Assembly (NCBI GenBank): GCA_020072565.1
Contig: JAIQGI010000014.1
Coordinates: 16,327-80,326 of the forward strand
Length of the DNA stretch: 64,000 nucleotides
Source of the DNA: Terriglobia bacterium
Lineage (GTDB): Bacteria > Acidobacteriota > UBA6911
Reading direction: 5' to 3'
Made by a program: the position numbers and the translations under genes. Below, piece after piece: positions 28,738 through 47,633 of the stretch (position 1 is its first letter; every line of letters begins with the position of its first letter). Under the pieces are notes generated by a model. That model searched no databases, was not told the origin of the DNA, and saw nothing but the letters and a program-made list of their open reading frames with translations.

Positions 28738-31700
28738 ATGGAGATATTGAGATACAGCGACCTGGATACGCGAGGGCTGGAGCAGTACGTGGAGCACGCC
28801 ACGGCGCTTCTTCGGGAAGGCGACTTCCGCGGCGCAGACGCCCGCAAAATGGTTGGTTCGCCGTTTTATAGGGCGCGGTTGAACGACAGGGACCGCCTGT
28901 TGTTCCGCTTCGTCGCTCACGGCGGGAAATCCCATCTCGTGCTGCTCGAGGTGATCCGGAATCATGCGTACGAAAAATCCCGCTTTCTCAACGGCGCCGT
29001 GGTTGATGAAAATAAATTGGTGCCGATCCCGGACGCCGCGCAGGTTCCGGCGGGCGATCTCCTGCCGTTGAGTTTCATCAATCCGAAAATCCAGCGCGTC
29101 CATGTGCTGGACAAGATCCTATCACTCGACGACTGGCAGGAGGCTGCGTATGTGCAGCGGCTGCCATTGATACTGATCGGTTCGGCGGGGAGCGGCAAGA
29201 CGGTACTGACGCTGGAGAAGATGAAGCAGATGTCCGGCGATTTGCTGTACGTCACGCATTCCGCCTACCTGGCGGAGAATGCCCGCAGGCTGTACTACGC
29301 CTCGGGCTACGAGAACGAGGCGCAGAACCTCAGCTTCCTGTCGTTTCGCGAGTTCGTGGAAACCATCCATGTGCCGCCGGGGAGCGTGGTGGATTTCCGG
29401 ATTTTCGCACGCTGGTTTGCCCGGCATCGGCAGGCTTCGGGCCTGCGCGACGCCCATCAGCTTTTCGAGGAATTCAACGGCGTGTTGACCGGTTCGCCGG
29501 TCACGACCCCGTATCTGTCGCGCGCGGACTACCTGGCCCTGGGCGTGCGCCGTTCCATTTTCACCGGCGACGAACGGCCGCTGGTGTACGACCTGTTCCT
29601 CAAATATCTCGACTTCCTCAAACAGGAGGAACTCGCGGACCTCAACCTGCTGTGTTTCCAGTATCACGAGGCCTGCCGCCCGTCCTATGACGCGATCGTC
29701 GTGGACGAAGTGCAGGATCTGACCAATGTTCAGCTCAGCCTGATTCTCAGGACGCTCCGCCATCCGGAAAAATTCATTCTTTGCGGCGATTCCAACCAGA
29801 TTGTTCATCCGAATTTTTTCTCGTGGGCCGCGCTCAAGACCCTGTTCTACGAGAACCGCCTGAAGACCAGCGGCGAGATCATACGGCTTCTCAATACCAA
29901 CTATCGTAACACGCCGGAAGTTACGCGCCTGGCCAATCGGCTGCTGCTCCTGAAGAATGCGCGCTTCGGATCGATCGATCGGGAAAGCCACTACCTGGTC
30001 CGGCCGATCTCGGAAAACCAGGGGCGCGTGGAATTCCTCGCCGATACGGACGCGGTGAAGCGCGAGTTCGACGCACGCACATCCCGTTCCACGCGCTTCG
30101 CCGTGCTCGTGATGCGCCCGGAGGACAAGGAAGCTGCCGGCCGCTGCTTCCGGACTCCGCTGCTTTTCTCCATCCAGGAAGCCAAGGGCCTCGAATACGA
30201 GAACATCATTCTCTTCAACTTCGTCTCAGGATCAGCTGCCGTGTTCAAGGAGGTCACCGAGGGAGTAGAACCCGCGGATTTGAAAGCGGACTTCTCGTAT
30301 GCCAGGGCGAAAGACAAGACCGACAAGTCGCTGGAAGGTTTCAAGTTTTATATCAACTCGCTCTACGTGGCCATGACCCGGGCCGTGCGGAATCTATACA
30401 TCATCGAGCAGGACACCGGGCACCGCCTTTTCCGTCTGCTGGGGCTCGATCTGCCCGGCCGCGAAGTGAAGCTCAAGACCCAGGATTCCTCGGCTGAGGA
30501 ATGGCAGGCCGAAGCGCACCGCCTCGAAATGCAGGGCAAACAAGAGCAGGCGGAAGCGATTCGGCGGCGCATTCTCGAGACGCAGCCTGTGCCTTGGCCC
30601 GTAATTACGCCGGATGGACTGGCGCAACTGGAGTTTGAGGCACTCAATCCGCAAGCCTACAACCGGCAGGCAAAACTGCTGCTGTTCGAGTATGCGGTGA
30701 TGTATTCGGTGCCCCGCCTCTTCCCGAAACTGGCGGCGTTGCAGTTCAACCCGGCGTTCCGTGCTGATTCCGAGCGGGCCGCGATCGAGAACAAGTACAG
30801 CCAGGACTGCCAGGGGGCACATCCGGTTCTGAATCAGAAGATCGAACGCTATGGTGTTGATTTTCGCAACCCGCTCAACCAGACGCCGCTCATGGTGGCC
30901 GCGCGACTGGGGCGGAAAGACCTGGTGCGCGACTTGGTTGCGCAGGGAGCCAACACCCAAGCCCGGGATAACTGGGGACGGGTGCCGCTGCAGATCGCGC
31001 TACGCCAGGCGTATAGCCGGCCCGAATACGCACGGTCGGCTATCGGCGAGGTCTACCCACTGCTTGCGCCGTCCGCGCTCAAGGTGCGGACGGGTGGGCG
31101 GCTCGTGAAACTCGACAGCCATGTCATGGAGTTCTTCCTCCTGCACTCCATGTTGGCGCTGTTTGAAGACGTGGTTCGACGCAAGGTGCAGGTTGCCTTT
31201 CCCGCCTTCGAGACGGGTGATTTTGTGTCCGCCCTGGAGCCGTTCCCCGTAAACGTCATCCCGGAGCATCGCCGCCGCCGTCCTTATTTGAGCGGTGTGC
31301 TCGCGCGCAACGAACTGCACCGCGGCGATCCCGGCAACCGCCAGCTCTTCCTGCGGGTCAGCCACGGGTTCTATGTACCGAATCCGGCGATGGATATCGA
31401 GATCGAGAACGCCTGGATCAATGTGTGCGACCTGCTGCACCTGGACACCATGGACGAAGGCGCCGAAAAGCGCCTGAAAGATCTCCTGGATGTGATGCGG
31501 CACGTCCGAAAACAGGGGCGGCTCGAAGACTCAAGCCGTCTGCGATTTTCTCCGTTTCATAGCACACCCGTTGCGCGTACCCTCGATAGTATTGCCCGCA
31601 AAGTGCGTGGTGAAGACGTGGCTTGGGAAGATGAATGGGAAGCGGCGGATCCACGATCCGGTGCTACGGCTCCCGACGTTCCGTTCCGGCAGGAACCGGC

Positions 31701-32928
31701 TGTAGAGACCGTTTCCGTAGCCACCCCCGCCGAATGGCAGCCGGAGCCGGCGCCATGCGTGCCCACCCAATATGAATTGCCCTTGGAGGATGCCGTGGCG
31801 GAACCGGCGGCAGTGGCAGCATCACCCGCCGAGCCGTCAGAACCCGAACCTATCGACGCTCCCGATGTGGTTCCCGTGGCGGCGGACCCGCTGACAGTCT
31901 CACCGTCGGAACCCGCGCGCCCCCGCGTGGCGGACGCACTGCCCCAACGCGTCGCGGCGATTCCCCAATCCCGTGTGACACCGCGCGGCGCGGAAGGCGC
32001 CGACATGCCTCCACCACTGCCTCCGCTCCTTGACATTGCCATGCCGGCGTACACGCAGCGCGAACAGCAGATGCTGCGGCGATTCGAGTTCCCGTCGTAC
32101 CCATTTCCCGAGGCGGACGCACGTCAGGTGGCCGCGAATCAAGATCGTTTTCGCCCCGCGCTTCTTGGCATAGTCCGAGGGATGCTCGATCCGCAAATAA
32201 AGCAGGAGGTAATTGCCGGCCGGCACAACCACATGGGGTATGCTGCCGCGATCTATATCCTCGCGGGCGCCCGGGATCAGGCGCTTTGGCCGCTATTGCT
32301 GAGGGTGACGATCGATCCGGACCTCGCCCCTTTCCACCTGCGCTACGAAAAATGGCTGGACTTGCCTCGCATCCTGGCCACCGTGGCACCGCAAGATCTC
32401 GCACCCATCATGCGTCTCGGCGCGTGGCGGCCGCTTCCGGGCGCTTCCCGTGGCTTGATCCTCAGAACCTTGGCCTTTCTTTTCTTCTGGAAGCGCACAT
32501 CGCGTGAGAGTGTAGTCCAAACCCTCCGGCAAACCTTCGATGTCGGGATTCCAGCATCGGATCTCGATCTCTGGGACGTCGTCCTGGATGTCTGCTGTAC
32601 CGTGCATCCGCACGAGATGATGGGCTATCTCCGGCGGCAGTTGTCTCCAGCTGTTTGTCGCGGACTTGAAGTGAGTCGCGCGGACCTCGAGAATATGAAC
32701 TTGGTGCCAATGGATAGGGTGCTAGCCGACTCACGCGCCGCCGCCGCCGGACCGATCCGGGGTTGGGAGGACTTTGCCGAGATCGGGCTTGAGGGCGGGC
32801 GCTCCCGTGAAGAGGAATGCGATATCAAAGAAGCCGAGCCTATCCACGCGGCACCGAAGACAGGCCGGAATGATCCATGTCCCTGTGGGAGCGGGCGCAA
32901 GTTCAAGAAATGTTGCGGCGCAGGGTAA
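28738..32928 (+). CDS. 1396-aa multidomain protein: RelE/ParE-like N-terminal segment, SF1A (UvrD-like) helicase, ankyrin repeats, Pro/Ala/Glu-rich linker, unknown C-terminal domain, SEC-C zinc motif
   Basis: Helicase motifs are Walker A GSAGSGKT (aa 148-155), motif II VVDEVQDL, motif III LCGDSNQIV, motif IV NYRNTPEV and motif VI VAMTRAVRNLYII. Ankyrin repeats appear at NQTPLMVAARLGRKDLVRDLVAQGANTQARDNWGRVPLQIAL. The last residues are GRNDPCPCGSGRKFKKCCG, a SecA-type SEC-C metal-binding motif. The N-terminal segment FYRARLNDRDRLLFRFVAHGGKSHLVLLEVIRNHAYE is patterned like a RelE/ParE core. Confidence 0.8.
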   Translation: MEILRYSDLDTRGLEQYVEHATALLREGDFRGADARKMVGSPFYRARLNDRDRLLFRFVAHGGKSHLVLLEVIRNHAYEKSRFLNGAVVDENKLVPIPDAAQVPAGDLLPLSFINPKIQRVHVLDKILSLDDWQEAAYVQRLPLILIGSAGSGKTVLTLEKMKQMSGDLLYVTHSAYLAENARRLYYASGYENEAQNLSFLSFREFVETIHVPPGSVVDFRIFARWFARHRQASGLRDAHQLFEEFNGVLTGSPVTTPYLSRADYLALGVRRSIFTGDERPLVYDLFLKYLDFLKQEELADLNLLCFQYHEACRPSYDAIVVDEVQDLTNVQLSLILRTLRHPEKFILCGDSNQIVHPNFFSWAALKTLFYENRLKTSGEIIRLLNTNYRNTPEVTRLANRLLLLKNARFGSIDRESHYLVRPISENQGRVEFLADTDAVKREFDARTSRSTRFAVLVMRPEDKEAAGRCFRTPLLFSIQEAKGLEYENIILFNFVSGSAAVFKEVTEGVEPADLKADFSYARAKDKTDKSLEGFKFYINSLYVAMTRAVRNLYIIEQDTGHRLFRLLGLDLPGREVKLKTQDSSAEEWQAEAHRLEMQGKQEQAEAIRRRILETQPVPWPVITPDGLAQLEFEALNPQAYNRQAKLLLFEYAVMYSVPRLFPKLAALQFNPAFRADSERAAIENKYSQDCQGAHPVLNQKIERYGVDFRNPLNQTPLMVAARLGRKDLVRDLVAQGANTQARDNWGRVPLQIALRQAYSRPEYARSAIGEVYPLLAPSALKVRTGGRLVKLDSHVMEFFLLHSMLALFEDVVRRKVQVAFPAFETGDFVSALEPFPVNVIPEHRRRRPYLSGVLARNELHRGDPGNRQLFLRVSHGFYVPNPAMDIEIENAWINVCDLLHLDTMDEGAEKRLKDLLDVMRHVRKQGRLEDSSRLRFSPFHSTPVARTLDSIARKVRGEDVAWEDEWEAADPRSGATAPDVPFRQEPAVETVSVATPAEWQPEPAPCVPTQYELPLEDAVAEPAAVAASPAEPSEPEPIDAPDVVPVAADPLTVSPSEPARPRVADALPQRVAAIPQSRVTPRGAEGADMPPPLPPLLDIAMPAYTQREQQMLRRFEFPSYPFPEADARQVAANQDRFRPALLGIVRGMLDPQIKQEVIAGRHNHMGYAAAIYILAGARDQALWPLLLRVTIDPDLAPFHLRYEKWLDLPRILATVAPQDLAPIMRLGAWRPLPGASRGLILRTLAFLFFWKRTSRESVVQTLRQTFDVGIPASDLDLWDVVLDVCCTVHPHEMMGYLRRQLSPAVCRGLEVSRADLENMNLVPMDRVLADSRAAAAGPIRGWEDFAEIGLEGGRSREEECDIKEAEPIHAAPKTGRNDPCPCGSGRKFKKCCGAG

Positions 32929-33340
32929 TGTCTATGGCCACATTGGTCAGCCGAGCCGGCCCAGCAGTGACACAGCCCCCAATTGACGAAAAATATGCCC
33001 TCAGTTCTGGTCGTCCACCTCTGAAGAAATTCCCCAAAGGTCCCAACCTCGGCGAGCCGTCAAGCTGATTTGCTGGCTGCGTCAATCCGTCAATCGCCAC
33101 CTGGTTATGTACGATATCCCCACCACTCGCCCCCGACATCCACTTCTATCCGAAATGATGCTGTAAGCGCTTTTCATTCTCATAATTACCGACCATATCT
33201 TCATGACTTCCTCCAGTGCTACTGCACCATGATGGGAACATTTTGAAGCGGCGGGCGTCTAAGATTGTCAGACAATAAAGAGGGCTTTGTCGTCCTCAGT
33301 CATGAATGCAGTTCTTGATTGAAACCGAAAACGGATCAAT

Positions 33341-34288
33341 ATGCGATACCGAATCTTCGTGGTGATCGTTTTCTGCTTCTGCATTTTGGCACTGATGTTG
33401 GCGCGATACGACTCATCTCTCAGAGCTGCGTCAACAGGAGTCTCCGGTCCTGCCATCCAGCGCCGCAACTACTCACCGAACACAATCCGCTACTATTTGA
33501 GTACGGTCGAGGATTTCGCCAGACACTTTAAGAAATCTCCGGACAAACTTGGTCCGGATCACTTGCGTTCGTACCACGCCTATCTTCTCAGAGACCGCAA
33601 ATTGGCGGTCGAATCTGTTGTCGGACGTGTAGCCGCACTGCGTTTCTTTTTTATCCGCACCCTAAAGCGTCCAGAGTTCCGAGACGATTTGCCGTATCCC
33701 AAACGGCACAGGAAGCATCCGATCGTTCTCAGCCCTGAGGAAGTGGCAAAGGTGATCAATGCCGCTCGAAGTCTGATGCACCGCGCTCGGTTGATGGTGC
33801 TTTACGGTACAGGCCTGCGCCGGGAGGAAGTTTCCCTGTTAAGAGTTGACAATATCGATAGTTCCCGAATGACGATCCATGTCCAATTCGGCAAGGGAGG
33901 CAAGCAACGGTTTGTTCCGCTCAGCCCCGTGCTGCTGAACACGCTGCGCGAGTACTGGCGTTGGAAAAAGCCCAAAGAATATCTGTTTCCCGGCACACGG
34001 ATCCGGAACGGCAAGATCATGCCGATCTCGGATAAGACTGTCTATCATGCCTGTGTCACAGCTGCGCATCGCGCTGGCATCCGGAAGAAAGTCACCCCGC
34101 ATCTGCTGCGTCACACCTTTGCTACCCATATGCTCGAAAACGGAACGGATATCAGGAGAATCCAGGAGATTCTGGGCCATGGAGACCTGGCAACCACCGC
34201 CAGATATCTGCACATATCGCAAAAACATCTGCAAAGTATCGTGAATCCGCTCGACTCGCTTCCGCTTTCGCCTGTGGACAAAAGCTGA
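33341..34288 (+). CDS. tyrosine recombinase (phage integrase family) of the IS91-family element
   Basis: The catalytic C-terminus is present (HLLRHTFATHMLENGTDIRRIQEILGHGDLATTARYLHI; R..HxxR..Y). The first ~40 aa do not align to copy B, and the conserved LRQ.. segment appears in another frame, so a 5' frameshift or alternative start is possible. Confidence 0.6.
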   Translation: MRYRIFVVIVFCFCILALMLARYDSSLRAASTGVSGPAIQRRNYSPNTIRYYLSTVEDFARHFKKSPDKLGPDHLRSYHAYLLRDRKLAVESVVGRVAALRFFFIRTLKRPEFRDDLPYPKRHRKHPIVLSPEEVAKVINAARSLMHRARLMVLYGTGLRREEVSLLRVDNIDSSRMTIHVQFGKGGKQRFVPLSPVLLNTLREYWRWKKPKEYLFPGTRIRNGKIMPISDKTVYHACVTAAHRAGIRKKVTPHLLRHTFATHMLENGTDIRRIQEILGHGDLATTARYLHISQKHLQSIVNPLDSLPLSPVDKS

Positions 34289-34303
34289 ACACACTGCGAC
34301 GCC

Positions 34304-35509
34304 ATGACGAAACCCCCATTTGAGGTTGCCGACATTGTCCGGGTTCAAGGCCATCGATTCCTCGAGAAACATGGCTCCGGCATGGATTTCGAGCAGGTGA
34401 AAGCGTTCCGCGCCATCAAGGCTTGCCGCACGGCAGCGCTCGGGGGCCACATTGATTATTGTCCCGGTTGCGGTAGCTACGAGAAGAACTCCTTCAATAG
34501 CTGCCGCAATCGCAATTGCCCAAAATGCCAGGCGGGATTGCGTCAGCGCTGGATTGCAGAACGGGAACGCGAAGTCCTGGGCGTTCCCTATTTTCATGTA
34601 GTCTTTTCCGTGCCGCACGAACTCAATGTCTTGGTGCGGGATAATCATCGACTGTTTTACAGTCTTCTGTTTTCGGCAAGTTCGAAGGCCGCCGTGGAGC
34701 TTGCGGCCGACCCCAAGTGGCTCGGCGCCCAGATTGGCATTCTCAGCACCTTGCACACTTGGGGCCAGAACCTGACGACGCATCCCGACATCCACTGCGT
34801 GATTCCGCAAGGCGGACTTGCGCCGGACCACAAAAGCTGGATCCATCCGCGCTACCGATTCTTTCTTCCCGTCAAGGTCTTGTCCAAGGTGTTCCGCGGC
34901 AAATTCCTTCATGCTTTGAGGCGCCTCTACCGCAAGAAGAAATTGCGATTGGTCGGCCCCGCAGCCTGTCTGGAGGATCCGAAGTGTTTTGCGGCACTGA
35001 TCCGACGGTTATACAAAAAGTCATGGGTCGTGTACGCCAAGCCGGCATTCGGCGGCCCCGTGCAGGTGATCCGGGATCTCGGACGCTATACCCACCGCGT
35101 CGCGATTTCCAATCACCGCATTGTAAACTTTGACGGCGAAAAGGTGACGTTTCTCTGGAAAGACTATGCCCATGAAAGCAGGCAAGGGGCGATGACGTTG
35201 GAGGCGACCGAGTTTTTGCGCCGGTTCTTTTCGCATGTACTGCCGAAAGGATTCGTTCGCATTCGGCAGTTCGGGTTTCTGGCGAATCGTTTCCGTGTCA
35301 AACGCGTTACGCTTTGCCCCGAGCTGCTTGGCGATCCCGTGGAGCCCAGCCAGACCCTGGAACCGGAACCTGATCCCGAGCTTCCAGAACCAACTGCCTG
35401 GAGATGCCCGCGGTGCGGCACCAGAGTCATCAGGGTGCGGATATTCACGGCCGGAGATTGGTCTTCCCGAGGAGGCTTTACTGATGGACAAATGTGTTCA
35501 GCTTATTGA
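34304..35509 (+). CDS. IS91-family transposase (HUH Y2 rolling-circle)
   Basis: An N-terminal zinc motif (CPGCG...CRNRNCPKCQ) is followed by the HUH motif HTWGQNLTTHPDIHCVIPQGG and the Tyr motif [15 protein letters not shown]. Confidence 0.75.
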   Translation: MTKPPFEVADIVRVQGHRFLEKHGSGMDFEQVKAFRAIKACRTAALGGHIDYCPGCGSYEKNSFNSCRNRNCPKCQAGLRQRWIAEREREVLGVPYFHVVFSVPHELNVLVRDNHRLFYSLLFSASSKAAVELAADPKWLGAQIGILSTLHTWGQNLTTHPDIHCVIPQGGLAPDHKSWIHPRYRFFLPVKVLSKVFRGKFLHALRRLYRKKKLRLVGPAACLEDPKCFAALIRRLYKKSWVVYAKPAFGGPVQVIRDLGRYTHRVAISNHRIVNFDGEKVTFLWKDYAHESRQGAMTLEATEFLRRFFSHVLPKGFVRIRQFGFLANRFRVKRVTLCPELLGDPVEPSQTLEPEPDPELPEPTAWRCPRCGTRVIRVRIFTAGDWSSRGGFTDGQMCSAY

Positions 35510-36142
35510 CCGCTATTTGTGCCGAACCTTCGGCTCTGAACCGCATTTGTGCCAACATTCCGACGATTCTGGTTCAACCTCTCCTGCATCCTGGATTCAT
35601 TCAAAACCCATAAGCGTCCGCCGCAAGCAGACAGCGGCTTCCTTCAAGTGGTCGTTATCGGAAATGCCTCGGCAACTTCTCTTTGCTCGTATCCCATCGT
35701 TTTCTGCGCCGAGGCATTTCCGATGAACGCTAACAACTATACGCTCGCAATAATTACTTTGTATTGAAGCCTTTGGCTCAAGCACTTGGATAATAAGCCG
35801 TTATGAGGACGAAAAGCTGAAATCTATGAAACCATCTTTGCCGACGGATTTGTGTTTCTTTTCCTTCTAAAAACCTCTCCTCTGTTGGCCGACATGAGCG
35901 GAAATTTCTGCGCTGATGCCGGATATCTGGGGATATGAATTCAGCTTTTCAAAGGACATGCCGAATATGTTGCTCATCGTCTGTTTTGACTTCAGTCCTC
36001 CGTCAGGATAGATTATCTTCAAGTTCCTCGAATGAAGTGCGGACGCGGATGTTGATAGCGGATGTAAATGTCCATGGCGACACAGACCCGTACCATCTGT
36101 GTGCAATGTGAAGCATTACTTTGCTGACCAGACGACCGGAAT

Positions 36143-38047
36143 TCAGAGGTGCGGAAGCCGCTCCCGGGTCCAGGTCTGAATCAGTTCCGCCAGTGGCCCA
36201 AAGATGCGAACCGCCCCCATAAAGAAGAGTTGGGGGTCGCGATCCTGGTAGGCTTTCTCCAGCCAGTCGATGACCCGGTCTCGTTCTCCGAGGCCTGCGT
36301 ACATGCAGATTAGGCTTTTTGCCGGCACATATCCCCGCTCGAGTCTCGCCAGCAACCCGTGGAGCATAGAGGTCGCGGTGTCCAGGTGGCCCGCCCTGGC
36401 GTGCGCATGTCCCAGATATCCAATGGAAAGCGCATCCGGGGAAATCGCAGCGGCCTTTTCGAAAGCCTGAACCGCCGAGTCAAATCGTGAGTGCATCAGT
36501 TCCGACCACCCCAGGACGTACCAGGCCTGGAGAGCGTCCGGGAACAGATCCAGCGTGGTGCGTGCCTGTTGTCGGGCCCACTCGTACTCCTCCACAAACA
36601 GATGGATCCAAGCCGCATCCGCGTTGACGTCGAGAGATAGCGGATCCAAATCCAAGGCAAGCTTCGCCTCCGCAATAGCTTTGGCACGATCTCCCGCGAC
36701 TATCGCCAGAAACACGGCATAGTTTACGTGAGCGCCTTCATCGCTCGGATTCAAGTCAATGGCGCGGAGGGTCTCCGCCTTGCAGGTGGCCAAGTCCCAA
36801 TCGTGCAGCCAACTGACCCACCCCAGAACCCAATGAGCAACGCTCAGGGCATCATCCAGAGCGATGGCCTTCAGGGACGCCTTCTGGGCCCGGGGATAGG
36901 CCTCGGGGCCGGGCAGGTGTCCCCAGAAGCCCAGGAGAGAGTAGCATAGGGCCATGTGAGCATACGCCGGTGCGTGGGTGGGATCCTTTTCCAGCGCCAG
37001 GTGGAGACATTGCAGGCCTTTGTGAAACCCGTCCAGTGAGCGCTGGCCCAGGTAATGGCGGGCCTTGAGATAGGCTACTTGTGCTTCCGGGTTCACGGGG
37101 CGCTGGCGAGAGAGCCGCCCGACCTCGGCCGTGCTCAAGGTCACCTGCGCCGCCTCAGCAATGTCCCGCGCGACCTGCCCCTCCATAGTGAGGATGTCAC
37201 CCATCCGGCATGAGTAGGCTTTGGACCAGAGGTGCTGCTCGGGCATGGTTTGCACGAGCTGGGCAGTAATGCGGATGCTGTCCCCATCCACGAGCACGCA
37301 TCCCTCGACGACAAGGTCTGCCTTTAAATCACAGGCGATTTCCGCAAGCGTCTTGCGCGTGCCCTTGAGATGGAGCACGGATTGGCGGGAAATCACGCGC
37401 AACGTGCTCACGTTTCCCAGCTCCGTGGTCAGCGCGTCGGCCACAGCGTCGCCGAAGAAATCCTGTTCCGGATGACGGTTCAGATTCTCGAACGGCAGCA
37501 CTGCGAGCCTGGGTGGAACGATGAGCACCTGCTCGACCGGCGCGATGAAGCGATAGCCACGGTGATGCAGCGTCTCGATATACCTGGGTTTGCGGGCACC
37601 ATCCCGAAGCGCATCCCTCAACCGATTCACCGCGCTGTTCAGGCTGTTGTCGAAGTCGACGGAAACGCCGTCCGGCCAGAGCCGCTGCCTCAAATCCTGG
37701 CGCGTCACAAGTTCGTCGGGATGCTCCAGCAGTGCCACGAGCGCCTCGAAAGATTTGCCCTGGACTTGGATCCGCAGGCCGTTTTTACGCAGCTCACCCG
37801 CAGGCACATCGACCTTGTAGGGGCCGAAGGTAAACCGTTTGACACGGGTTTTTGCCTGACTCACAGTGGATTCACCATAGCGCCCACCGCAATCCGGAGT
37901 CAAGCCTCCTGAAATCATCGTCTTGCGTCGTGAGAAACATTCAAGAAGGAAACAAGAATCACAGCCAAGGATTGTGGCGCAAAATCGGTCTCGGTAAGAC
38001 GTTCCATATGAAGCGCAGAATGCCGGATACGGCCCCAAGCGGCACAT
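36143..38047 (-). CDS. winged-helix (OmpR/CadC-type trans_reg_C) DNA-binding regulator with C-terminal TPR domain
   Basis: The N-terminal segment FGPYKVDVPAGELRKNGLRIQVQGKSFEALVALLEHPDELVTRQDLRQRLWPDGVSVDFDNSLNSAVNRLRDAL...YIETLHHRGYRFIA is a canonical OmpR C-terminal wHTH. It is followed by ~400 aa of TPR-like helices. The true start is probably internal (MISGG.. or later). Confidence 0.7.
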   Translation of the reverse strand: MCRLGPYPAFCASYGTSYRDRFCATILGCDSCFLLECFSRRKTMISGGLTPDCGGRYGESTVSQAKTRVKRFTFGPYKVDVPAGELRKNGLRIQVQGKSFEALVALLEHPDELVTRQDLRQRLWPDGVSVDFDNSLNSAVNRLRDALRDGARKPRYIETLHHRGYRFIAPVEQVLIVPPRLAVLPFENLNRHPEQDFFGDAVADALTTELGNVSTLRVISRQSVLHLKGTRKTLAEIACDLKADLVVEGCVLVDGDSIRITAQLVQTMPEQHLWSKAYSCRMGDILTMEGQVARDIAEAAQVTLSTAEVGRLSRQRPVNPEAQVAYLKARHYLGQRSLDGFHKGLQCLHLALEKDPTHAPAYAHMALCYSLLGFWGHLPGPEAYPRAQKASLKAIALDDALSVAHWVLGWVSWLHDWDLATCKAETLRAIDLNPSDEGAHVNYAVFLAIVAGDRAKAIAEAKLALDLDPLSLDVNADAAWIHLFVEEYEWARQQARTTLDLFPDALQAWYVLGWSELMHSRFDSAVQAFEKAAAISPDALSIGYLGHAHARAGHLDTATSMLHGLLARLERGYVPAKSLICMYAGLGERDRVIDWLEKAYQDRDPQLFFMGAVRIFGPLAELIQTWTRERLPHL

Positions 38048-38228
38048 ACTTCAGATGCGCGTTCTTCTCCTGTGAATCCAGCTGGCAGTGCAACACGTTA
38101 AGGCGGCGGCACTGCTGGGCGCATCCTACCCAACACTTGCCGATCCCCATTCGCAAATTACTTTGTAGCCCAACGTCGGCCCTGAGGGCTTGGCCGCAAG
38201 GGCTACGCAACCAGAAAAGAGGTGTGGA

Positions 38229-38765
38229 ATGACGACCAGAAACATGCGATTCTCCGTCGCCATCCTGGCAGTGCTCATCACCGCCGGGGTTAGCGCATCC
38301 ATCGCTCAGGAGACCGGACCGGTCTACTCGATGGAAGGGTCTTGGTACGGAATAGTTTCGATCACAAGTCCGACGGCCATGTCTACGCCGTCCCTCGACA
38401 CTTTCACCTCAAACTCTCAGAGGCGCGCCGTCGAAGGCACGTTTATTTGCACCATCCCCGCAGTTGGCAAGATGCCGAACCCTATGAATGCGAATGGATG
38501 GCTGGGTACGACTGCCTCGGGACACGGCAACTGGGTGCGAATCGGCACGAACAAGTACGCATTCACAGCCGTGAGGACGGTTTTCGATGAGACCGGGAAG
38601 TTGTTCGGCTGGGCGAAATTCTGGGGGACCATCACCCCCATTTCGGATAACGAATATACGGGTACGATGAACGCACAGTACTATTTGCCCAATGGCACCC
38701 CGTTCACGCCGCTGTTCACTGGCACCCTGCATTCGACACGGATCGAGATCACCTTTGAGCAGTAG
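38229..38765 (+). CDS. hypothetical secreted protein
   Basis: A signal peptide (MRFSVAILAVLITAGVSASIAQE) precedes a beta-rich body with no known motif. The gene is divergent from the regulator at 36143..38047. Confidence 0.45.
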   Translation: MTTRNMRFSVAILAVLITAGVSASIAQETGPVYSMEGSWYGIVSITSPTAMSTPSLDTFTSNSQRRAVEGTFICTIPAVGKMPNPMNANGWLGTTASGHGNWVRIGTNKYAFTAVRTVFDETGKLFGWAKFWGTITPISDNEYTGTMNAQYYLPNGTPFTPLFTGTLHSTRIEITFEQ

Positions 38766-39700
38766 GGCAGAATCATGCAGGTAACGCCAACCCACGTATG
38801 GGCTGCCGCTGCTTGTTGCTGACACGGGGAACTCGAATTCGGCAGGGCCGGTCTTGATCCAGATCATCTCTGTCGGCTGAGTCTGTCAGACTGGCGAGGG
38901 CCGCTTTTCGGGGCGGCCTTTTCAGTTCAAACCATTGATCTGGCTCCTTTGTCGACAGACGTCCATCGGAGAACGCGTTCAAAGTTTTGCTGCGCACATA
39001 TCCGTGGAGGTGTGCCGCATGGCCCATACCCTCTCTGGGGGGTGGGCGCGTAGAACGGCGGAGGATCGAGGTCTTTGACGTATTTAAGGTGTTTCTCTAG
39101 TGAAGGCTCCAGTGTAGCTCTAACGCAATGACCCAGAGGTCGGGATTTGCTCCCCACTGGAAGGGACAATTTGCTGCAGTAGGACCACGCCCCACTGCAA
39201 CCTCATCAGAGCGGGAGGAACGCGCTGCCTTGAGGCAGCGTGGTACGAGGGGACACACCGCACCACGGAGCGAGGTGCTGATGCTTCGCTGGCCTACAAC
39301 GTGCAGAACGGCGTACGACAATACACGAGCTTCGCGGCAACTTTGGTTCCACGCGGGCGGTTAACGTTAGATCTCTATCGGAAGTGCTCCGGCGGATAAT
39401 CCACGATCGTGGCACGAGGTCGCGTCCGGAGCACTTTTGATAGAGACGTTTGAAGTGAGCCGCTGGCGCAGCGTCCGACAGGGCGCTCCCTATGGGTTTT
39501 CTATCATCGCGGGGGATGAAAGAAATCGTGGCTGAGAACTCCGATTTGGCTCTTTTCGGCGGTGCTTCATAAACAGCACGGAGAAATTGTGTTCTAAAAC
39601 GGGGTCAATTACCCAGGAAAAGGGCGATTTTTCGTGGTTTGGGCAAGCCTCCGGCAGATACGGAACATTCGGCACAGACGAGGCCGGGCCGGGTCGAACA

Positions 39701-40954
39701 TCAAGAGCTGTCAGCGGCATATTCCATCCTATTTAGCACGGACCGGATCTGTGCGGCGGTCAGACGTTCGATGATGCACATGGTCCCGTGACAGCGAGGG
39801 CACTTGGCAACCTGCGGTTCATCGGGTTCGGCCGTTGGCGCCGGGTGATGGAGTAAGGTTCGGCAAATCGGCAGCAGTTCTCCGCACCGGCGATTGGCAA
39901 GCCAGCCAAAATAGCGAATGCGTGGCAGCCCCTTCGGTAGCACATGCTGCAGGAAGCGGCGCAAAAACTTCTCGTGGGTGAGTGTCTTGGTGCGTTGCAC
40001 GCCGTTATGGGCGTAATCCTTCCATTGAAAGGTCACATGGGACTCATCAACGGAGGCGATTCGATGGTTGGATATGGCAACACGATGGGTGTAGCGAGCC
40101 AGATACTGAAGCACGTGCTCGGGGCCGCCGAAGGGCGGCTTGGAGTAGACGACCCAGTCCTGTTCCGACAGAGGTTTCAAAAACGCGGCAAACGCTTCCC
40201 CATTGGCTAACGGCTCGCACTTTCCGTAAAAGGACAGTTTGTCTGCCAGATGCGCCTGCCTCAGTCCATCCACAAACTTGTCGCGAAAGGTACGGCTGAG
40301 AACCTTGACCGGCACGAAGTAACGGGGATGCGACGAGATCCAGCGGCTGTGATCCGGGGACAGACCGCCACCGGGCACCACGCAATGAATGTGCGGATGC
40401 CTCTGTAGAGTCTGCCCCCAGGTATGCAAAATGCAGAGAAAGCCGATTTCCATACCTCGACGCTTATGATCGGAAGCCACTTCCAGGAGAGTAGCCGCGG
40501 TAGCCTGGAAGAAAAGCGAAAGCAGGAGTTTCTTGTTTTGCCAGATCAACGGGACCAGGCGGTGCGGGATGCTGAAAACGATGTCGTAGTACCCGACGGG
40601 CAGCAACTCTTGTTGCCGTTTGCGGAGCCACTTCTCGCGTGCATTGACTTGACACTTCGGGCAGTGGCGATTGCGACAGGAAAAGAACGAGATAGCCTGA
40701 TACCCGCAACTGGCACATCGATCACGATGCCCACCAAGAGCGGCGGTGCGGCAGCTCACGATGGCATGGAGCACCTTGAGCTGTCCCCACAGCTCAGCGT
40801 CTCCCCGAGGCGCTCCCACAGTTTGCTGCCCGCCATGCGAATGACATCGGCCACCTCCCAGAGGGGCCGAGCCATTAGTGATTGTCCTCCGGTGGGTAGT
40901 GCAGTTCGGAATGGCTGCGAAGCGTGATCTGCTCAAGAGGATTGATAACCGCAC
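39701..40954 (-). CDS. IS91-family transposase (copy B); N-terminus possibly frameshifted
   Basis: The HUH and Tyr motifs are conserved ([21 protein letters not shown]; [14 protein letters not shown]). Hand translation shows the expected N-terminus [25 protein letters not shown] in a different frame starting at 40875, so the gene may be a pseudogene or carry a sequencing indel. Confidence 0.5.
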
Positions 40955-41032
40955 GAAGATGACGCTGCGACAGATGCAAATAGATCGCGGTTTCTTTCAG
41001 GCAGGAATGCCCCAGGAGAAGCTGAATGGTTC

Positions 41033-41755
41033 TCAGGTCGGCTCCCGCTTCGCAAAGGTGTGTCTCAGCGTGTGCGGACCGATGGTCTTAGTCAAGCCCG
41101 CGCGTTTTGCCGCACCACGAACGGCGTGCCAGACGGTTTTGTCCGACATCGGCTTCTCAACACCGAGACGTCCTGCGGTGCTGGGGAACAGATAGATCTT
41201 CGGCCGCTTCGAACGATAGTACTCACGCAGCGCATCGAGAAGTTTGGGAGACATCGGCAGAGCGCGATCGCGTGAACCTTTGCCCTGCCGGATATGGATG
41301 ATCATGCGCTGACTGTCAATGTCAGCCAGTTTGACAAGCGGAGCCTCGGCCCGTCGTAAACCCGTCGAGTACAAAAGCATCAAAATGGTGCGGTATTTGA
41401 GATTCGGCGCAGCTTCGATCAATCGCGTCACCTCTTCATGACTCAGCACCACCGGCAGCTTTTTAGGAACCTTGGGGAAAGGCAAATCGTCCATGTCAAG
41501 ATCGCGACGCCTGAGGGTCTTCTTGTATAGGAAACGCAATGCCGAGAGTCTTATTTTAACCGTGCTCGGCTCAAGCTTCTTCTCCTTGAGCAGGTAGAGT
41601 TGAAACCGGCGCACCTCTTCGGTGCCGAGTTTATCCGGGGACTTGTCGAAATAATCGGCAAACTGCTTGACGGCCAGAATGTATCCACGAAACGTTTCAG
41701 GTGAGTAATTGCGGCGCTGGAGCTCGTCCAGCATTCTCTGACGTAATGGGGTCAT
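41033..41755 (-). pseudogene. tyrosine recombinase of IS91-family copy B, C-terminally truncated by frameshift
   Basis: The ORF stops after HTLRHTFA. The continuation [31 protein letters not shown]... (catalytic Tyr region) is readable in another frame between 40955 and 41032. Confidence 0.45.
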
Positions 41756-42309
41756 AGAGACCTCCTTTCTATGACCCCGAGGCTAGCAAAACGGCGGGAT
41801 TACCGCAGCAAACGTGGATACCTAAGTCGGTGATGCAAATCGGGGATTACCGCTGCGAACGTCGATACCGGCGCCAGCGGCTTAGTTCTAACGGCGTACT
41901 CGTACAATGACAAAGGTGAACAAAAGGTGAACCCAGCGACTTGTCCGGGTACGCTAACGACTTCTTGGGAGTAATCCGGCGGACCCCTGTGCGGCAGTGG
42001 CATTCAGCGGGATTGTTGGTCCCAGACGAAACCGATGCGGACGCCCTCTCTGGTGAAGCGCTTCGAGATCAATGAGCGGCATGGAATCTCCTTCCGCGCC
42101 GAGGCTTACAACGTGTTCATCAACGCCAACTTCGGCCCGCCGAATACCGATTTCAAATCGAGCTACCTCTGGAAAGATCTCCACTGCCGTGGGCAATGCC
42201 CCGGTTCTACAGGTGGCTCTGCGTTACGATGTTTGAGAACGGGCTGACCAGACGCCCTGGGTGCCTCCGAAGCTTCCTGTTCAAAGTGTGGCCCGCTACC
42301 CGGCTCGTG

Positions 42310-44055
42310 TTATGGAGCGAGGCCCAGGCGGCGCAGGAGTTCGTCATACCGTGGGTCCGAACGCATGGTATCGTACTCGGGATAAATCTTTAGCCAGGGC
42401 AACAGCGGACTGCGTTCCTCATAGGCACGGTTGAGGCATTCGAAGAACTTCTCGCGGTCCCCCAGCCCCCCATGGATTTCCGCCAACACTGTCGAGGGGA
42501 GACCCAGCTTCTCAAAATGCGCTTCGGCCTCCTTCAGAACTTTCTGCGCCTCGGCTTTGTCGCCCCGGAGGCTATACGCATACCCAAGCTTGGAAATCGC
42601 CAGCGGCATATATCCCGTGTGCTCCATGGATTTCTGAATGGCGGCGATAGCTTGGTCATACCGTCCCTGTTGGATTAGGACAAATGCCAGATAGACATAA
42701 GCGAGGCCGAAGTCGGGGTCCAGTTCAAGCGTTTTCTCCAGTTGCTCCACAGCCTGTTTGTATTCCCGGGCCCAGTAAAGCACCAATCCTACATTGGCAT
42801 TGATGCTGAGCGAGAGCGGATCGAGGTCCTCAGCCCGTCTTGCTTCGGCAACGGCTTCATCAAATCGGGCCATGGCACAGAGATACTGGGCATACCAAAG
42901 ATGACTTGTAGGGTAACCCGGATTTAGTTCGAGCGCCTTTTTGAATTCACACTCTGCCCCGGGCCAATCCCACGAATACAGCATTTTAGTATATGCGAGG
43001 GAAGTGTGCGCCTCGGCGATCGTATTGTCGATTTCCAGTGCCTTTTCCGCTGCGGCCTTAGCAGTGGGGAATGTCTCGTGCGAAGCACGGAATTGAAAAA
43101 TGCCTTGCAGATTGTAATAGTCGGCCAATCCCGAGTAGGCCAGCCCGTAACGCGGGTCGACCCCAATCGCTTGCTGAAAATACTCGAGCGCCTTCTCCGG
43201 TGCCCCCGGAGAAAACCGTCTGTTCCAGAAGTGGCGACCTCTCAAATACAGGTGATATGCGTCCACGCTGCCCGTATACCGTTTTACCACCGTGCTTTTC
43301 TCGCTTGGCAGCAGCTTGACCTTCAGCCTATCGATGATCGCAGCAGCAATCTCATCCTGGATCGCAAAAATATCGTCCATCTCGCGGTCGAACTGCTCCG
43401 ACCAAAGATGGTAACCGTCGGCGGCGCTGATGAGTTGAGTGAGGATGCGCACGCGGTTGCCTCTTCTTTGCACACTTCCTTCGAGGATCGTGGCCGCGTT
43501 CAACCGTCTGCCGATCTCGTGCACGTCCAATTTCTGGTTCCTGAGCGAGAATGCCGAGGTTCGCGCGACCACTCGCAGATCCCTGACCCTTGTCAATGTG
43601 TTGAGCAGTTCTTCAGCCAGTCCGTCGCAAAAATACTCGTTCTCCGGCGCGGCGCTCAGGTTGGCAAACGGCAGGACTGCAATAGAGGGCACAGAGGCAA
43701 CACTGACGGCTGCCCTGCGCTCTTCAATAATTACGTCAGCGATGAAGCGATAGCCACGCTTGCGAACAGTGCTGATATAACGGGGAGTGCCGGCCGCATC
43801 ACCGATGGCATGCCGGATATTCTTGATTTCCTGAGCCAGGGCATCGTCGGTGACAAACGATTCCTTCCAGATTTGATCAAACAGTTCCTGCTTTTCCACC
43901 ACACGGTCACGATGTTCGATCAGATAAATCAGGAGGTCAAATGCTCGCGGCTCGAGGCTCATCAGTTGAGCGCCTTTGAACACGCGAAAGAGGTCCCGTT
44001 CCACCACGACATGGTTAAAACGATAGGACAGGTGCGGTTGGTCATGACGTGGCAT
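42310..44055 (-). CDS. winged-helix (OmpR/CadC-type) regulator with C-terminal TPR domain (paralog of 36143..38047)
   Basis: The N-terminal wHTH reads FDLLIYLIEHRDRVVEKQELFDQIWKESFVTDDALAQEIKNIRHAI..YISTVRKRGYRFIA and is followed by a long TPR array. Confidence 0.7.
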   Translation of the reverse strand: MPRHDQPHLSYRFNHVVVERDLFRVFKGAQLMSLEPRAFDLLIYLIEHRDRVVEKQELFDQIWKESFVTDDALAQEIKNIRHAIGDAAGTPRYISTVRKRGYRFIADVIIEERRAAVSVASVPSIAVLPFANLSAAPENEYFCDGLAEELLNTLTRVRDLRVVARTSAFSLRNQKLDVHEIGRRLNAATILEGSVQRRGNRVRILTQLISAADGYHLWSEQFDREMDDIFAIQDEIAAAIIDRLKVKLLPSEKSTVVKRYTGSVDAYHLYLRGRHFWNRRFSPGAPEKALEYFQQAIGVDPRYGLAYSGLADYYNLQGIFQFRASHETFPTAKAAAEKALEIDNTIAEAHTSLAYTKMLYSWDWPGAECEFKKALELNPGYPTSHLWYAQYLCAMARFDEAVAEARRAEDLDPLSLSINANVGLVLYWAREYKQAVEQLEKTLELDPDFGLAYVYLAFVLIQQGRYDQAIAAIQKSMEHTGYMPLAISKLGYAYSLRGDKAEAQKVLKEAEAHFEKLGLPSTVLAEIHGGLGDREKFFECLNRAYEERSPLLPWLKIYPEYDTMRSDPRYDELLRRLGLAP

Positions 44056-44081
44056 CGCTAACTCCGCAAAGTCGCAGAAAA

Positions 44082-44214
44082 ATCAGGTCTTCTTCATTGC
44101 GAAGCGATAAATCTTATTATTTTAACGCCATCCTGGCCTAAGCTCAAAGCACAGCCAAAAAACTCAAGCAATTCGCCCACCCATAAGATCACCGAAAGAT
44201 CAGGTTTTCTTCAT
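44082..44214. promoter_or_regulatory. direct repeats atcaggtYttcttcat (x2, 117 bp apart) in divergent regulator/PD40 intergenic region
   Basis: atcaggtcttcttcat (44082-44097) and atcaggttttcttcat (44199-44214) match at 15 of 16 positions, with flanks gaaaRatcaggt... also conserved. OmpR-family wHTH proteins typically bind direct repeats. Confidence 0.3.
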
Positions 44215-44529
44215 CACAGAGGGCAGCTGATTGGACTATATGCACATCAGTAGGACAAAGGCACTAATTCACGTACCCGCGCCACATCCTCAGGATGATC
44301 AATAAGGAACAACGAAGTACTACTCGGATAGGGATGTCGCTTTTGCTTGGCAATTCCCACCTCGACATTAGTTGTGGATTGCCAGTTCTGACATGGATCG
44401 ATGGATGCCGAGTCTTAATCCCGAAAAGCGGCCGGCCGAGCAGTAAGACCGATGCTCTGGTGCACGCCGGCGTTGTTTGAGGCTATTTCCGGTTGAAGTC
44501 TGCGGATTTCATTATGAATAGGAGGTGCC

Positions 44530-45444: not shown

Positions 45445-45586
45445 TTCATGTTCTGCGGGTACTCACGTGCCGGGAGAACAAAAAACGATATACGAATCCA
45501 TGATTGCCGTTCGTCCTTACCTCCGTCCGACCACGCCGGAAGTTCGAGGGCGTCGGGTCGGCGGAGGTGAAGGGACGTCCAGATAG

Positions 45587-45898: not shown

Positions 45899-45942
45899 TG
45901 GACTCTACGAATTCGGGGTGTCTGTAACTCGTTGAAAAGATT

Positions 45943-46017
<75 letters not shown>

Positions 46018-46205
46018 GCGATAACTATTGATATATCTATGCTTTAGCGTTTCATTAAATTTTCGTGCAACAAATGTACAACAGAATATTCCCCTCTGTC
46101 GTTTGGGCTTGTTGTACCGTGTTTGAGTCGCGCTTCAGCATGAGCGTACTTTACTTTTTGTTGCAGATTTTCGCAAGCGGTAATGCCTTCAGGTGGAGAT
46201 CGCCT

Positions 46206-47623: not shown

Positions 47624-47633
47624 TTCATCTCCT

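Follow-up and report, generated by a model that had tools for sequence, protein, structure and literature searches.

Within the window, the whole 64-kb stretch of DNA that was analysed, two tyrosine recombinase genes, each followed by an IS91-family transposase gene, stand in inverted orientation around a regulator and a putatively secreted protein. The first-pass annotation had seen in this a resemblance to a composite transposon. The question is whether the two elements could have moved the intervening genes together, or whether they came to the site separately. The comparisons described here make it very probable that two non-identical, defective elements inserted into the interval independently, that the scar of a third is also present, and that the pair is not a composite transposon. 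The region would then be a mobile-element graveyard, at a site repeatedly struck by such elements, with no working composite transposon.

Family and anatomy of the two elements

The integrases of both elements, A and B (Table 1), were matched by Phage_integrase and SAM_4 in Pfam and both transposases by Y2_Tnp and Zn_Tnp_IS91. Against the NCBIfam profile for IS91 family transposases, NF033538 (cut-off 125 bits), the transposases scored 400 (TnpA_A) and 404 bits. These matches bear out the two inverted recombinase-transposase pairs first described, and their place in the integrase-carrying subgroup of the IS91 family. The further suggestion that they are two copies of one IS did not survive the comparison, as amino-acid identity between A and B is ~49% for the transposase and 53% for the integrase, DNA similarity is patchy (67-71%), and the terminal sequences and hairpin arms are unlike each other. 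Judged from their sequences, A and B are two distinct IS species of this subgroup.

The elements follow the layout terIS, int, tnpA, subterminal repeat, hairpin and oriIS, and stand tail to tail, each with its oriIS end towards the enclosed DNA. The hairpin expected 3' of each element was found in both, perfect over 17 bp in A and 90% complementary over 21 bp in B. At the right end of B similarity to three relatives (L007, L008 and L010) fades past ...TCTAACGT. The AAGCCGCTGGCGC sequence at its left end is the inverted partner of its subterminal repeat (23 nt, 87%), and a left end of the form GAAC[T/G]AAGCCGCTG is common to L002-L005, L007, L008, L010, L068 and seven metagenome loci. The elements had therefore been located correctly at first but delimited wrongly, the left end of B being at 41888 and not 41755, and the right end of A at ~35737. 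The hairpin over the integrase start is present in B and lost from A; such hairpins occur at the equal place in three lineages, with arms unlike in sequence.

Table 1. Positions in the window of the features of elements A and B, the enclosed genes and the neighbouring scar
Feature	Position	Strand	Description
Element A	~33124-35737	+	int, then IS91-family HUH/Y2 tnpA, then conserved hairpin
332-nt unique segment	33124-33455		stands in place of left 131 nt of A
Integrase A (tyrosine recombinase)	33456-34288	+	codon 12 to stop; native start lost
tnpA of A	34304-35509	+	open frame, 401 aa; NF033538 400 bits
Right (oriIS-type) end of A	35632-35737	+	subterminal repeat CAGCGGCTTCCTTCAAG (35632-35648); hairpin, 17-bp perfect inverted repeat (35657-35673 / 35708-35724); terminus GAACGCTAACAAC (to ~35737)
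Reg1, wHTH (Trans_reg_C) + TPR regulator	36143-38047	-	Pfam; outside either IS
Small protein	38190-38765	+	signal-peptide-like N-terminus (MTTRNMRFSVAILAVLITAGVSASIAQE...)
Element B	~39363-41888	-	int, then IS91-family HUH/Y2 tnpA, then conserved hairpin
Right (oriIS-type) end of B	39363-39469	-	subterminal repeat GCGCCAGCGGCTCACTTCAAACG (39469-39447); hairpin, 21-bp repeat (39446-39426 / 39392-39372); terminus GATCTAACGTT (to ~39363)
tnpA of B	39701-40875	-	start ATG 40875-40873
Integrase B	40875-41755	-	13-nt deletion between 41052 and 41051
Hairpin over integrase B SD and start codon	41748-41778	-	GGGGTCATAGA-aaggaggtc-TCTATGACCCC
Left (terIS-type) end of B	41871-41893	-	GAAC 41888-41885 (other strand GTTC), then AAGCCGCTGGCGC
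A-type third-element scar, 27 nt	41937-41963	+	CGACTT + GTCCGGGT + ACGCTAA + CGACTT

Defects in elements A and B

An intact relative of A, 95% identical to it (L068), matches window 33048-33123 in its left flank, which passes directly into the left end TAGAACGAAGCC, and homology to the window picks up again only at 33456. The left 131 nt lost from A comprised terIS, the integrase RBS hairpin, the start codon and the first 11 codons, and the segment now in their place found no match among the other sequences compared. This segment encodes a spurious N-terminus for the open reading frame at 33341-34288. What had been read as a frame switch in the N-terminus of integrase A is thus simply the point at which homology to intact relatives ends, the 332 nt upstream being unrelated. 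From QRRNYSP on, integrase A is ~97% identical in amino acids to the intact 288-aa integrase of L068; it matches Phage_integrase at 2.8e-38, in addition to SAM_4, and keeps the catalytic boxes RHTFATH, LGH and RYLH. Its frame is open, all catalytic boxes are present, and an in-frame ATG inside the replacement segment could allow its expression.

The transposase of A carries two substitutions, H162D (GAC, codon 34787-34789) in the HUH motif and Y258D (GAT, codon 35075-35077) at the first catalytic tyrosine, positions that align with H159 and Y249 of canonical IS91 TnpA. HPHIH and RYLGRY occur in every relative aligned with TnpA_A. In a set of 240 homologues, counted only where the motif was found, the column of residue 162 holds histidine in 238/238 and that of residue 258 tyrosine in 231/231. 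Mutation of Y249 or Y253 in IS91 abolished activity (PMC5714925). The exact mutant TnpA_A is also present on contigs with other junctions, one with a canonical integrase start and a truncated right end (L210) and one with a different right flank (L209). If these are true copies and not assembly chimeras, mutant A was copied after gaining its substitutions, and candidate routes are copying in trans, segmental duplication, or D162/D258 not being fully lethal.

Element B still has both ends. Its lesions were called by nucleotide alignment against the same three relatives, in two of which (L007 and L008) the genes are intact (297-aa int, 390-aa tnpA). The integrase deletion, bordered in the relatives by TTTGCGA microhomology, takes out the codons THLC and 1 nt just past box II (HTLRHTFA), and so cuts HxxR off from the downstream histidine and the catalytic tyrosine; in tblastn, the match to IntA moves from frame -1 (residues 39-261) to frame -3 (residues 262-309), the two parts overlapping by 13 nt. 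In tnpA, the start ATG of which overlaps the integrase stop (TAATG), a 2-nt insertion, a TG duplication at ~40788-40791, puts the first ~28 codons in the wrong frame. The HUH motif is undamaged, as are both tyrosines, and the reconstructed TnpA_B is 85% identical to an intact 390-aa protein (P0121) across 100% of its length. Frameshifts had been suspected in both genes of B and are genuine, and the view that both elements are decaying was right, with A damaged beyond what had been estimated. Both A and B are dead or crippled. It is possible that intact helper copies lie elsewhere in the genome, of which the 64-kb window is the only part seen.

The enclosed genes and the history of the site

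The 4.2-kb segment said to carry a wHTH-TPR regulator and a secreted protein was found between the two tnpA stops (35509 to 39701), with both genes in place; a family match was sought for the small protein and none was found. In an Acidobacteriota MAG locus (L011) a Reg1 homologue, 89% identical, adjoins a 42% identical homologue of the small protein, and no IS91 element lies within 10 kb of this gene pair. Homology between the window and this IS-free locus begins at 35736, exactly the right end of A, the position of which was set by this onset and by comparison with L002-L006 and L068. The regulator and secreted protein belong to neither element and are host or island cargo. Since the whole interval is flanked by direct repeats of the tRNA-Gly 3' half, the enclosed genes may belong to an island and not to the core genome.

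Within the scar beside B, ACGCTAACGAC (41951-41961) corresponds to the last 11 nt of an A-type right end. Positions 593-1070 of another locus, L156, match window 41951-42428 with 97.7% identity, and upstream of the matched part L156 has a full A-type hairpin and terminus. That the same flank borders an A-type right end there points to independent insertions at one site.

In IS91, the accessory ORF and tnpA are preceded by terIS and followed by oriIS, and one-ended transposition follows when termination fails at terIS (PMC13181058). In intact relatives of A and B, oriIS would be nicked and one strand displaced across tnpA and int as far as terIS, then re-inserted, and a missed termination would carry DNA beyond terIS, that is, outside the bracketed segment. 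These mobilisation steps follow the IS91 model; membership, anatomy, defects and reproducibility were observed directly. Because the oriIS ends face inward and read-through would move DNA on the terIS side, the enclosed pair would not be carried and no composite transposon would form. Related elements inverted around cargo genes do suggest one, and in Weeksellaceae another IS91-family element, ISWz1, occurs in pairs on either side of resistance genes and gives rise to circles, although in direct orientation, unlike A and B (PMC11322121). It is nevertheless highly improbable that A and B jointly move the 3.6-4.2 kb regulator/secreted-protein segment, as they are different species (49% TnpA identity) with unlike termini and hairpin arms, and inward oriIS ends fit neither rolling-circle read-through nor outside-end transposition. 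Moreover A has no terIS and its TnpA is mutated at catalytic residues, B carries two frameshifts, the gene pair occurs without IS elements in L011, and the flank next to the left end of B adjoins an A-type right end instead in L156.

Independent insertion and decay also have to be set against readings in which the elements are sound. There is next to no likelihood that both elements are truly intact and owe their frameshifts and odd residues to errors of sequencing or assembly, even though related database MAGs come from long-read projects in which homopolymer indels are frequent, and repeats are easily misassembled, as the alternative junctions of L209 and L210 might indicate. Homopolymer slips, as originally feared, would neither delete 13 nt between 7-nt microhomologies nor duplicate TG. 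Six contigs, which come from six samples and two assembly pipelines, match window 36310-50055, with all of B, at 100% identity; two further assemblies do so for window 30304-39509, and 19 contigs carry the exact mutant TnpA_A protein. Defects identical across many independent metagenome assemblies are not sequencing errors. Continued function, by programmed frameshifting in B and, in TnpA_A, by aspartate as metal ligand with ISCR-like single-tyrosine chemistry, is very unlikely. The identical mutant A body with other junctions, the open TnpA_A frame, with codon differences from L068 (34 synonymous, 19 non-synonymous) that resemble past purifying selection, and the TAATG overlap, suggestive of translational coupling within the group, would favour it. 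However, the 13-nt deletion costs four conserved recombinase active-site codons and not merely the frame, intact relatives have single uninterrupted ORFs at both sites, none of 240 relatives has aspartate at either catalytic position, and A is without terIS. An invertible switch, in which the surviving IntA recombines sites in A and B and flips the segment between them, is barely conceivable. The catalytic boxes of IntA are intact, A and B are mutually inverted, and one metagenome contig (L001) joins B-like and A-like integrase pieces head to head with breaks at box II; but all independent contigs across the region show one orientation only, no common recombination site was found between A, its left end lost, and B, with a different right end, and inversion would leave promoter-gene relationships inside the segment unaltered.

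Comparison with related mobile elements

The ISfinder entries that we take to represent the integrase-carrying subgroup are ISAzo26, ISMno23, ISSde12, ISShvi3, ISWz1 and ISCARN110. RefSeq examples are found on pCB82_1 of Bradyrhizobium sp. CB82 (WP_283036857.1 and WP_283038853.1) and pCM008-C of Clostridium tagluense (WP_220323224.1 and WP_220323223.1). As in A and B, the tyrosine recombinase lies directly upstream of the transposase, with a 9-16 nt gap or an overlap, and the left end has the form GAACTAAaCCGCT; TnpA identity to the window elements is 48-50%. A and B differ from these examples as new sequence variants from soil metagenomes of Acidobacteriota type, both defective, and their closest database proteins, 85-92% identical, are without names.

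Canonical IS91 (orf121-tnpA) and IS801/IS1294 share with the window type an HUH and Y-x3-Y transposase with an N-terminal zinc-binding domain, separate terIS and oriIS ends and subterminal palindromes. IS91 further resembles B-type elements in the overlap of its upstream accessory ORF stop with the tnpA start. Its TnpA is however only 25% identical to those of the window, and the upstream gene encodes the 121-aa Orf121 in place of a ~290-aa tyrosine recombinase. ISCR elements are also rolling-circle relatives and capture DNA beyond terIS; capture of this type argues against the enclosed segment being mobilised. ISCR transposases, which work with a single tyrosine, make up a clade of their own, and ISCR elements are not known to carry an integrase. 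Tn5 and Tn10 likewise have two inverted IS elements around cargo, but these are two copies of one DDE-type IS with outside ends recognised by one transposase, whereas the present region has two species of HUH rolling-circle element, both inactivated, and their ends differ in function.

Ends and hairpins are conserved across ~100 related elements. Compensatory changes affect 6/16 pairs of the right-end hairpin, in which B-type covaries together with A-type hairpins, and the hairpins are real cis elements. The GTTC/CTTG motifs proposed for the ends were only partly recovered: GTTC is present at the terIS cleavage position, as in IS91, whereas the oriIS flank of the subgroup has a 17-nt constrained stretch instead of the plain tetranucleotide of IS91. 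Direct repeats of 5-6 nt flank half of the subgroup elements in which both ends are visible, while IS91 is reported to make none.

Gene content and family assignment

Each of the two elements, A on the forward strand and B on the reverse, carries an integrase gene (int) just upstream of a transposase gene (tnpA), on a shared strand and within the element ends; the genes are separated by a 16-nt gap in A and overlap as TAATG in B. The first-pass annotation had described two inverted integrase and transposase gene pairs, and the ORF listing and profile searches bear this out. Its placing of both in the IS91 family also holds. On the basis of NCBIfam and Pfam profiles and RefSeq annotations, the profile NF033538 (IS91 family transposase) gave 400.5 bits for A and 404.2 bits for B against a cut-off of 125 bits, PF04986 matched at 3e-58 (A) and 3e-65 (B), and PF14319 at 3e-26 (A) and 4e-27 (B). 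The two are not copies of one IS, as had been supposed: amino-acid identity is 49% between the transposases and 53% between the integrases, and DNA likeness is found only in short patches of 67-74%.

The same int-tnpA layout is present in comparison loci L002-L010, L068, L186, L188 and L189-L198. On a Bradyrhizobium plasmid RefSeq annotates an "IS91 family transposase" preceded, at a distance of 9 nt, by a "tyrosine-type recombinase/integrase", a layout like that of A and B, and on a Clostridium tagluense plasmid the integrase and IS91 transposase genes overlap. ISfinder lists integrase-carrying members of the IS91 family. The likeness to canonical IS91 lies in its transposase fold motifs, in having ends of two kinds and in an ORF upstream of tnpA with a stop/start overlap, and the difference is that in canonical IS91 this ORF is the unrelated 121-aa Orf121 rather than an integrase. 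Elements A and B are new, defective members of this known int-tnpA kind of IS91 element, a subgroup that is very abundant in soil metagenomes and poorly studied.

Features of the locus, at window positions unless a comparison locus (L) is named
Feature	Position	Strand	Description or basis
Integrase ORF, element A	33341-34288	+	ORF listing; Phage_integrase with N-terminal SAM_4
Transposase, element A	34304-35509	+	Zn_Tnp_IS91 and Y2_Tnp
Right end, element A	35632-35648 (subterminal repeat)	+	Complete; repeat, hairpin, then terminus GAACGCTAACAAC ending at 35737
Right-end hairpin, element A	35657-35673 / 35708-35724		17 bp, perfect
wHTH-TPR regulator	36143-38047	-	
Small protein	38190-38765	+	
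Integrase, element B	41755-41033	-	ORF listing; Phage_integrase with N-terminal SAM_4
Transposase ORF, element B	40954-39701	-	Zn_Tnp_IS91 and Y2_Tnp
Left end, element B	41888-41885	-	GAAC (GTTC on the other strand), then AAGCCGCTGGCGC; as in all relatives
Right end, element B	39447-39469 (subterminal inverted partner)	-	Partner, hairpin, then terminus ...GATCTAACGT (~39363)
Right-end hairpin, element B	39372-39392 / 39426-39446		21 bp, 90%
Integrase-start hairpin, element B	41778-41748	-	Arms GGGGTCATAGA / TCTATGACCCC
Integrase-start hairpin, A-type			Arms GGGTCACAAG / CTTGTGACCC
Integrase-start hairpin, third lineage			Arms GTGAGCCTC / GAGGCTCAC
Loci with integrase-start hairpin			L002, L007, L008, L010, L068, L080, L086, L096, L132, L138, L161, L168, L175, L182
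75-76-aa ORF calls	39490-39720	-	Also L002 4285-4512, L007 2207-2437, L008 2275-2505; gene callers, A-type and B-type
Junction repeat CGTTA, element B	41889-41893 and 39362-39366		
Loci with junction repeat			Window B, L005, L007, L010, L080, L138, L161, L195, L197
Scar of third element	41937-41963		27 nt; ACGCTAACGAC at 41951-41961
tRNA-Gly(CCC) gene	45942-46016	-	
Copy of tRNA 3' half	~25356-25402		Direct copy, 46 nt, 43/46 identical, 20.5 kb away
1396-aa protein	28738-32928	+	Directly upstream of A
Phage-type integrase, 369 aa	55246-56355	-	Within 53084-56355

Decay of the two elements

Both genes of B switch frame, as seen by three-frame translation and tblastn, and the lesions were placed by nucleotide alignment with close relatives found via the protein database. 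In L007 and L008 the integrase (297 aa) is intact, and its stop codon overlaps the start codon of a transposase of 390 aa; L010 is another decayed copy. The int gene of B has a 13-nt deletion between window positions 41052 and 41051, at a site bounded in relatives by the repeat TTTGCGA, with the result that the codons after HTLRHTFA are gone and the frame is shifted ahead of the conserved LGH and the catalytic Tyr. In tnpA a net gain of 2 nt at ~40788-40791 (AGCTGTGGGG versus AGCTGGGG-type relatives) puts the first ~28 codons out of frame. With both repairs made, the transposase of B aligns end to end with P0121, an intact 390-aa protein, at 85% identity, and it keeps HPHIH and YLARY though its ORF is frameshifted. 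The frameshifts suspected in both genes are real, and both ends of B are present.

The lesions of A are of another kind. A-type ends were defined from L002-L005, which have identical transposases in several contexts, and from L068, a 95% identical element. The left flank of L068 corresponds to window 33048-33123 and is followed by a canonical left end, then by the RBS hairpin of the integrase and its start codon; in the window 332 unrelated nt (33124-33455) stand there instead, and the homology of A to L068 picks up only at integrase codon 12. The left end (terIS) of A has been deleted or replaced, and BLAST found no match for the source of the 332 nt in the window or ~200 comparison loci. A frameshift at the integrase N-terminus, proposed from "LRQQ" similarity in another frame, was rejected because homology to L068 stops abruptly at 33456, and the comparison shows that what looked like a frame switch is a replaced end. 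The start of the long ORF, at 33341, is fortuitous.

The frame of the A transposase (TnpA_A) is open, with Asp162 in HPDIH and Asp258 in DLGRY. His and Tyr stand at those columns in all 15 relatives of alignment A1, as well as in L068 and the 92% identical protein P0001, and among 240 homologues examined, those with the motif found have His in 238 of 238 and Tyr in 231 of 231. Alignment with IS91 TnpA from an E. coli plasmid equates columns 162 and 258 with H159 of the HUH motif and Y249, and mutation of Y249 or Y253 is known to abolish IS91 TnpA activity in vivo (PMC5714925). Read from sequence, the motif losses argue for inactivity of TnpA_A and not against its IS91 ancestry. An open frame annotated as "IS91 family transposase" can be catalytically dead, and annotators should be warned of this. 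The exact mutant TnpA_A body was also seen with a different right flank in L209 (2564-2977), and in L210 with a canonical integrase start (1-66) and a right end truncated at the hairpin (2271-2389). Such junctions are either chimeras of short reads or further copies present in the population; in the second case the mutant A was copied after gaining its substitutions, and this is the main caveat on TnpA_A being dead.

It had been feared that homopolymer errors might account for the defects. Neither indel of B is homopolymer-type. More than 20 contigs encode the neighbouring regulator (42310-44055) with an exact protein match; the six that were compared come from six samples and two assembly pipelines, and they match window 36310-50055, or parts of it, at 100% identity, all of B included. 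On 19 contigs the mutant TnpA_A occurs unchanged, and another two assemblies show 100% identity over window 30304-39509. As far as assembled contigs can show, sequencing error is excluded. The suggestion that both elements are decaying is upheld, by the end loss and catalytic Asp substitutions of A and the two indels of B, which are the same in independent assemblies. Decay took several routes: a deletion at microhomology, the duplication of a dinucleotide, the replacement of an end and the substitution of catalytic residues.

Probable independent insertions and the composite-transposon reading

Between the right ends of A and B (35738-39362) lie a wHTH-TPR regulator and a small secreted-type protein, and the first-pass annotation had likened the whole to a composite transposon. 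In IS91 the accessory ORF and tnpA are framed by terIS on the upstream side and oriIS on the downstream side, transposition proceeds from oriIS to terIS, and failure of termination mobilises adjacent DNA (PMC13181058; PMC5714925). The oriIS ends of A and B both point at the enclosed segment; read-through would exit leftwards past 33.1 kb from A, or rightwards past 41.9 kb from B. A composite transposon would show the same IS twice, with outer ends that serve one active transposase, and the whole unit at more than one site, and this combination was not found: the A-cargo-B unit had no second occurrence, only 100% identical contigs of the same locus being recovered. A scan of a genome collection identified L011, an Acidobacteriota MAG with an 89% identical homologue of the regulator and, beside it in the same divergent arrangement, a homologue (42%) of the small protein. 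In L011 there is no integrase or IS91 transposase within 10 kb of this pair. The inward-pointing oriIS ends, the divergence of A and B (49% TnpA identity and different ends), the defects in both and the cargo pair standing alone in L011 leave a composite transposon unsupported, and an inverted IS pair, as a further caution for annotation, need not be one. The best reading is that A and B are two independent insertions, since decayed.

DNA similarity to L011 starts at window 35736, in the last bases of A, which marks the right junction of A as an insertion boundary. Outside the left end of B is ACGCTAACGAC, the 11 nt with which A-type right ends finish. In metagenome contig L156, 97.7% identical over 478 nt, the flank next to ACGCTAACGAC adjoins an A-type right end that is complete. 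ACGCTAACGAC and a CGACTT upstream of it make up the scar of a third element, and the locus has therefore been struck at least three times. An inversion between A and B was also considered, since L068 has the left flank of A but not the right; it was rejected, as neither element is hybrid. The window shows accumulation and decay of IS91-type elements at one site, which is of little import for the window itself.

Terminal structures and target flanks

The hairpins expected after each element are present at their places. More than 120 loci came up when metagenome contigs were scanned for the right terminus of the A-type, and an oriIS hairpin 20-25 nt from the right terminus is kept in A, B and ~100 relatives. 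Its arm sequences differ between the A-type and B-type, with compensatory double changes in 6 of 16 predicted pairs. A second hairpin, present in three lineages with different arms in each, covers the Shine-Dalgarno sequence and start codon of the integrase; it is retained in B and has been lost from A. Its conservation with differing arms suggests translational control of the integrase, and the hairpin may serve as such a control element or as a DNA site. A conserved 75-76-aa ORF past or overlapping the end of tnpA (...NP*) was rejected as a gene, its protein conservation being no better than that of the DNA and its frame broken in A; the ORF probably just reflects end sequences that are conserved at the DNA level.

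The flanks past the conserved right terminus are CGTTA in B and CAACTA in A, with CGACTA, CGACTT and CGGTAT in relatives. Of the GTTC/CTTG target motifs that were to be sought at the ends, GAAC (GTTC on the other strand), a candidate for the GTTC-type cleavage tetranucleotide of terIS, was found at the left end of B, and no simple GTTC/CTTG was found at the oriIS flanks. The search for such a target failed and a longer constrained flank was found in its place: across 97 distinct right junctions information content lasts 17 nt past GCTAAC, without simple GTTC/CTTG, with the consensus G-A/G-C/T-T-W-Y-N-C-G-N-C-M-A-N-T-G-R. The left-end GAAC is preceded by a similar motif, and ~10-13 nt of motif are constrained on both sides. 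An exact 5-6-nt junction repeat, defined as identity of the 5-6 nt left of GAAC with the 5-6 nt from the last C of the right terminus, was found in 9 of the 18 elements whose two ends lie on a single contig (permutation mean 1.8, p ~2e-5), a figure confounded by short-read chimeras and element relatedness. L011, the only IS-free empty site compared, has left motif, ACTT and right motif contiguous with a single core, and the third-element scar retains CGACTT twice after near-complete loss of the element.

IS91 elements reportedly insert without duplicating the target. The repeats, the two-sided motifs, the single core of L011 and the scar together form the pattern expected from a tyrosine-recombinase core crossover or a small target duplication. 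The junction repeats may represent a small target duplication, an att-like core of tyrosine-recombinase type, or mimicry between terIS and target. It is conceivable, though we think it rather unlikely, that the subgroup inserts unlike canonical IS91, with the co-encoded integrase active in integration or excision of a rolling-circle intermediate and the start hairpin possibly controlling that integrase. This junction architecture is the sole lead of wider interest. The ends of the subgroup can now be described by a GAAC left end, a subterminal inverted repeat and a covarying oriIS hairpin, along with the integrase-start hairpin, the 17-nt constrained flank and the 5-6-nt junction repeats, and these features offer testable handles on the role of the integrase.

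Related arrangements and genomic surroundings

Several comparison loci carry rearranged forms. In L001 (1777-7453) three tandem tyrosine-recombinase genes, recombinase-trio-like, are followed by an inverted integrase joint, where a B-like N-part (94.6% to window 41060-41779) is inverted relative to an A-like C-part and tnpA (91%). The breakpoints are at box II (RH|TFA), a 22-nt perfect palindrome lies at the joint, and the hairpin is precisely deleted from the A-like right end; an inversion, a terIS-like internal site and an assembly chimera were considered. The lesion in the window's own int is a simple 13-nt deletion ~10 nt from the position of this breakpoint. In L005 (1-71, 62-3048; compare L002 1659-2115) a right end and, beyond it, the left end of the same element are set 456 nt apart, a layout that looks tandem or circularly permuted and may stem from one-ended transposition or from insertion in tandem. 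The soil metagenome locus L167 and L186 (Bradyrhizobium pCB82_1) have a common left flank, GAGCATGCCCGGCACA, which in pCB82_1 adjoins a group II intron reverse-transcriptase gene; this may reflect preferential insertion beside another mobile element.

The whole interval with A and B sits between a tRNA-Gly(CCC) gene and a direct copy of the 3' half of the tRNA, and looks like a tRNA-integrated genomic island. A domain search for an island integrase near the repeat at 25.4 kb gave no domain matches, and none was recognised at either island end. The region to the right of the tRNA is probably a prophage or integrative element, where the genes beside a phage-type integrase resemble an excisionase and a zinc-finger primase; a GpA-type terminase is encoded near 48.7-50.1 kb, on the 100% identical contig L199. 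The 1396-aa protein upstream of A has an unusual architecture, in which a UvrD-like helicase core is joined to ankyrin repeats, DUF1186 and, at the C-terminus, a SEC-C motif.
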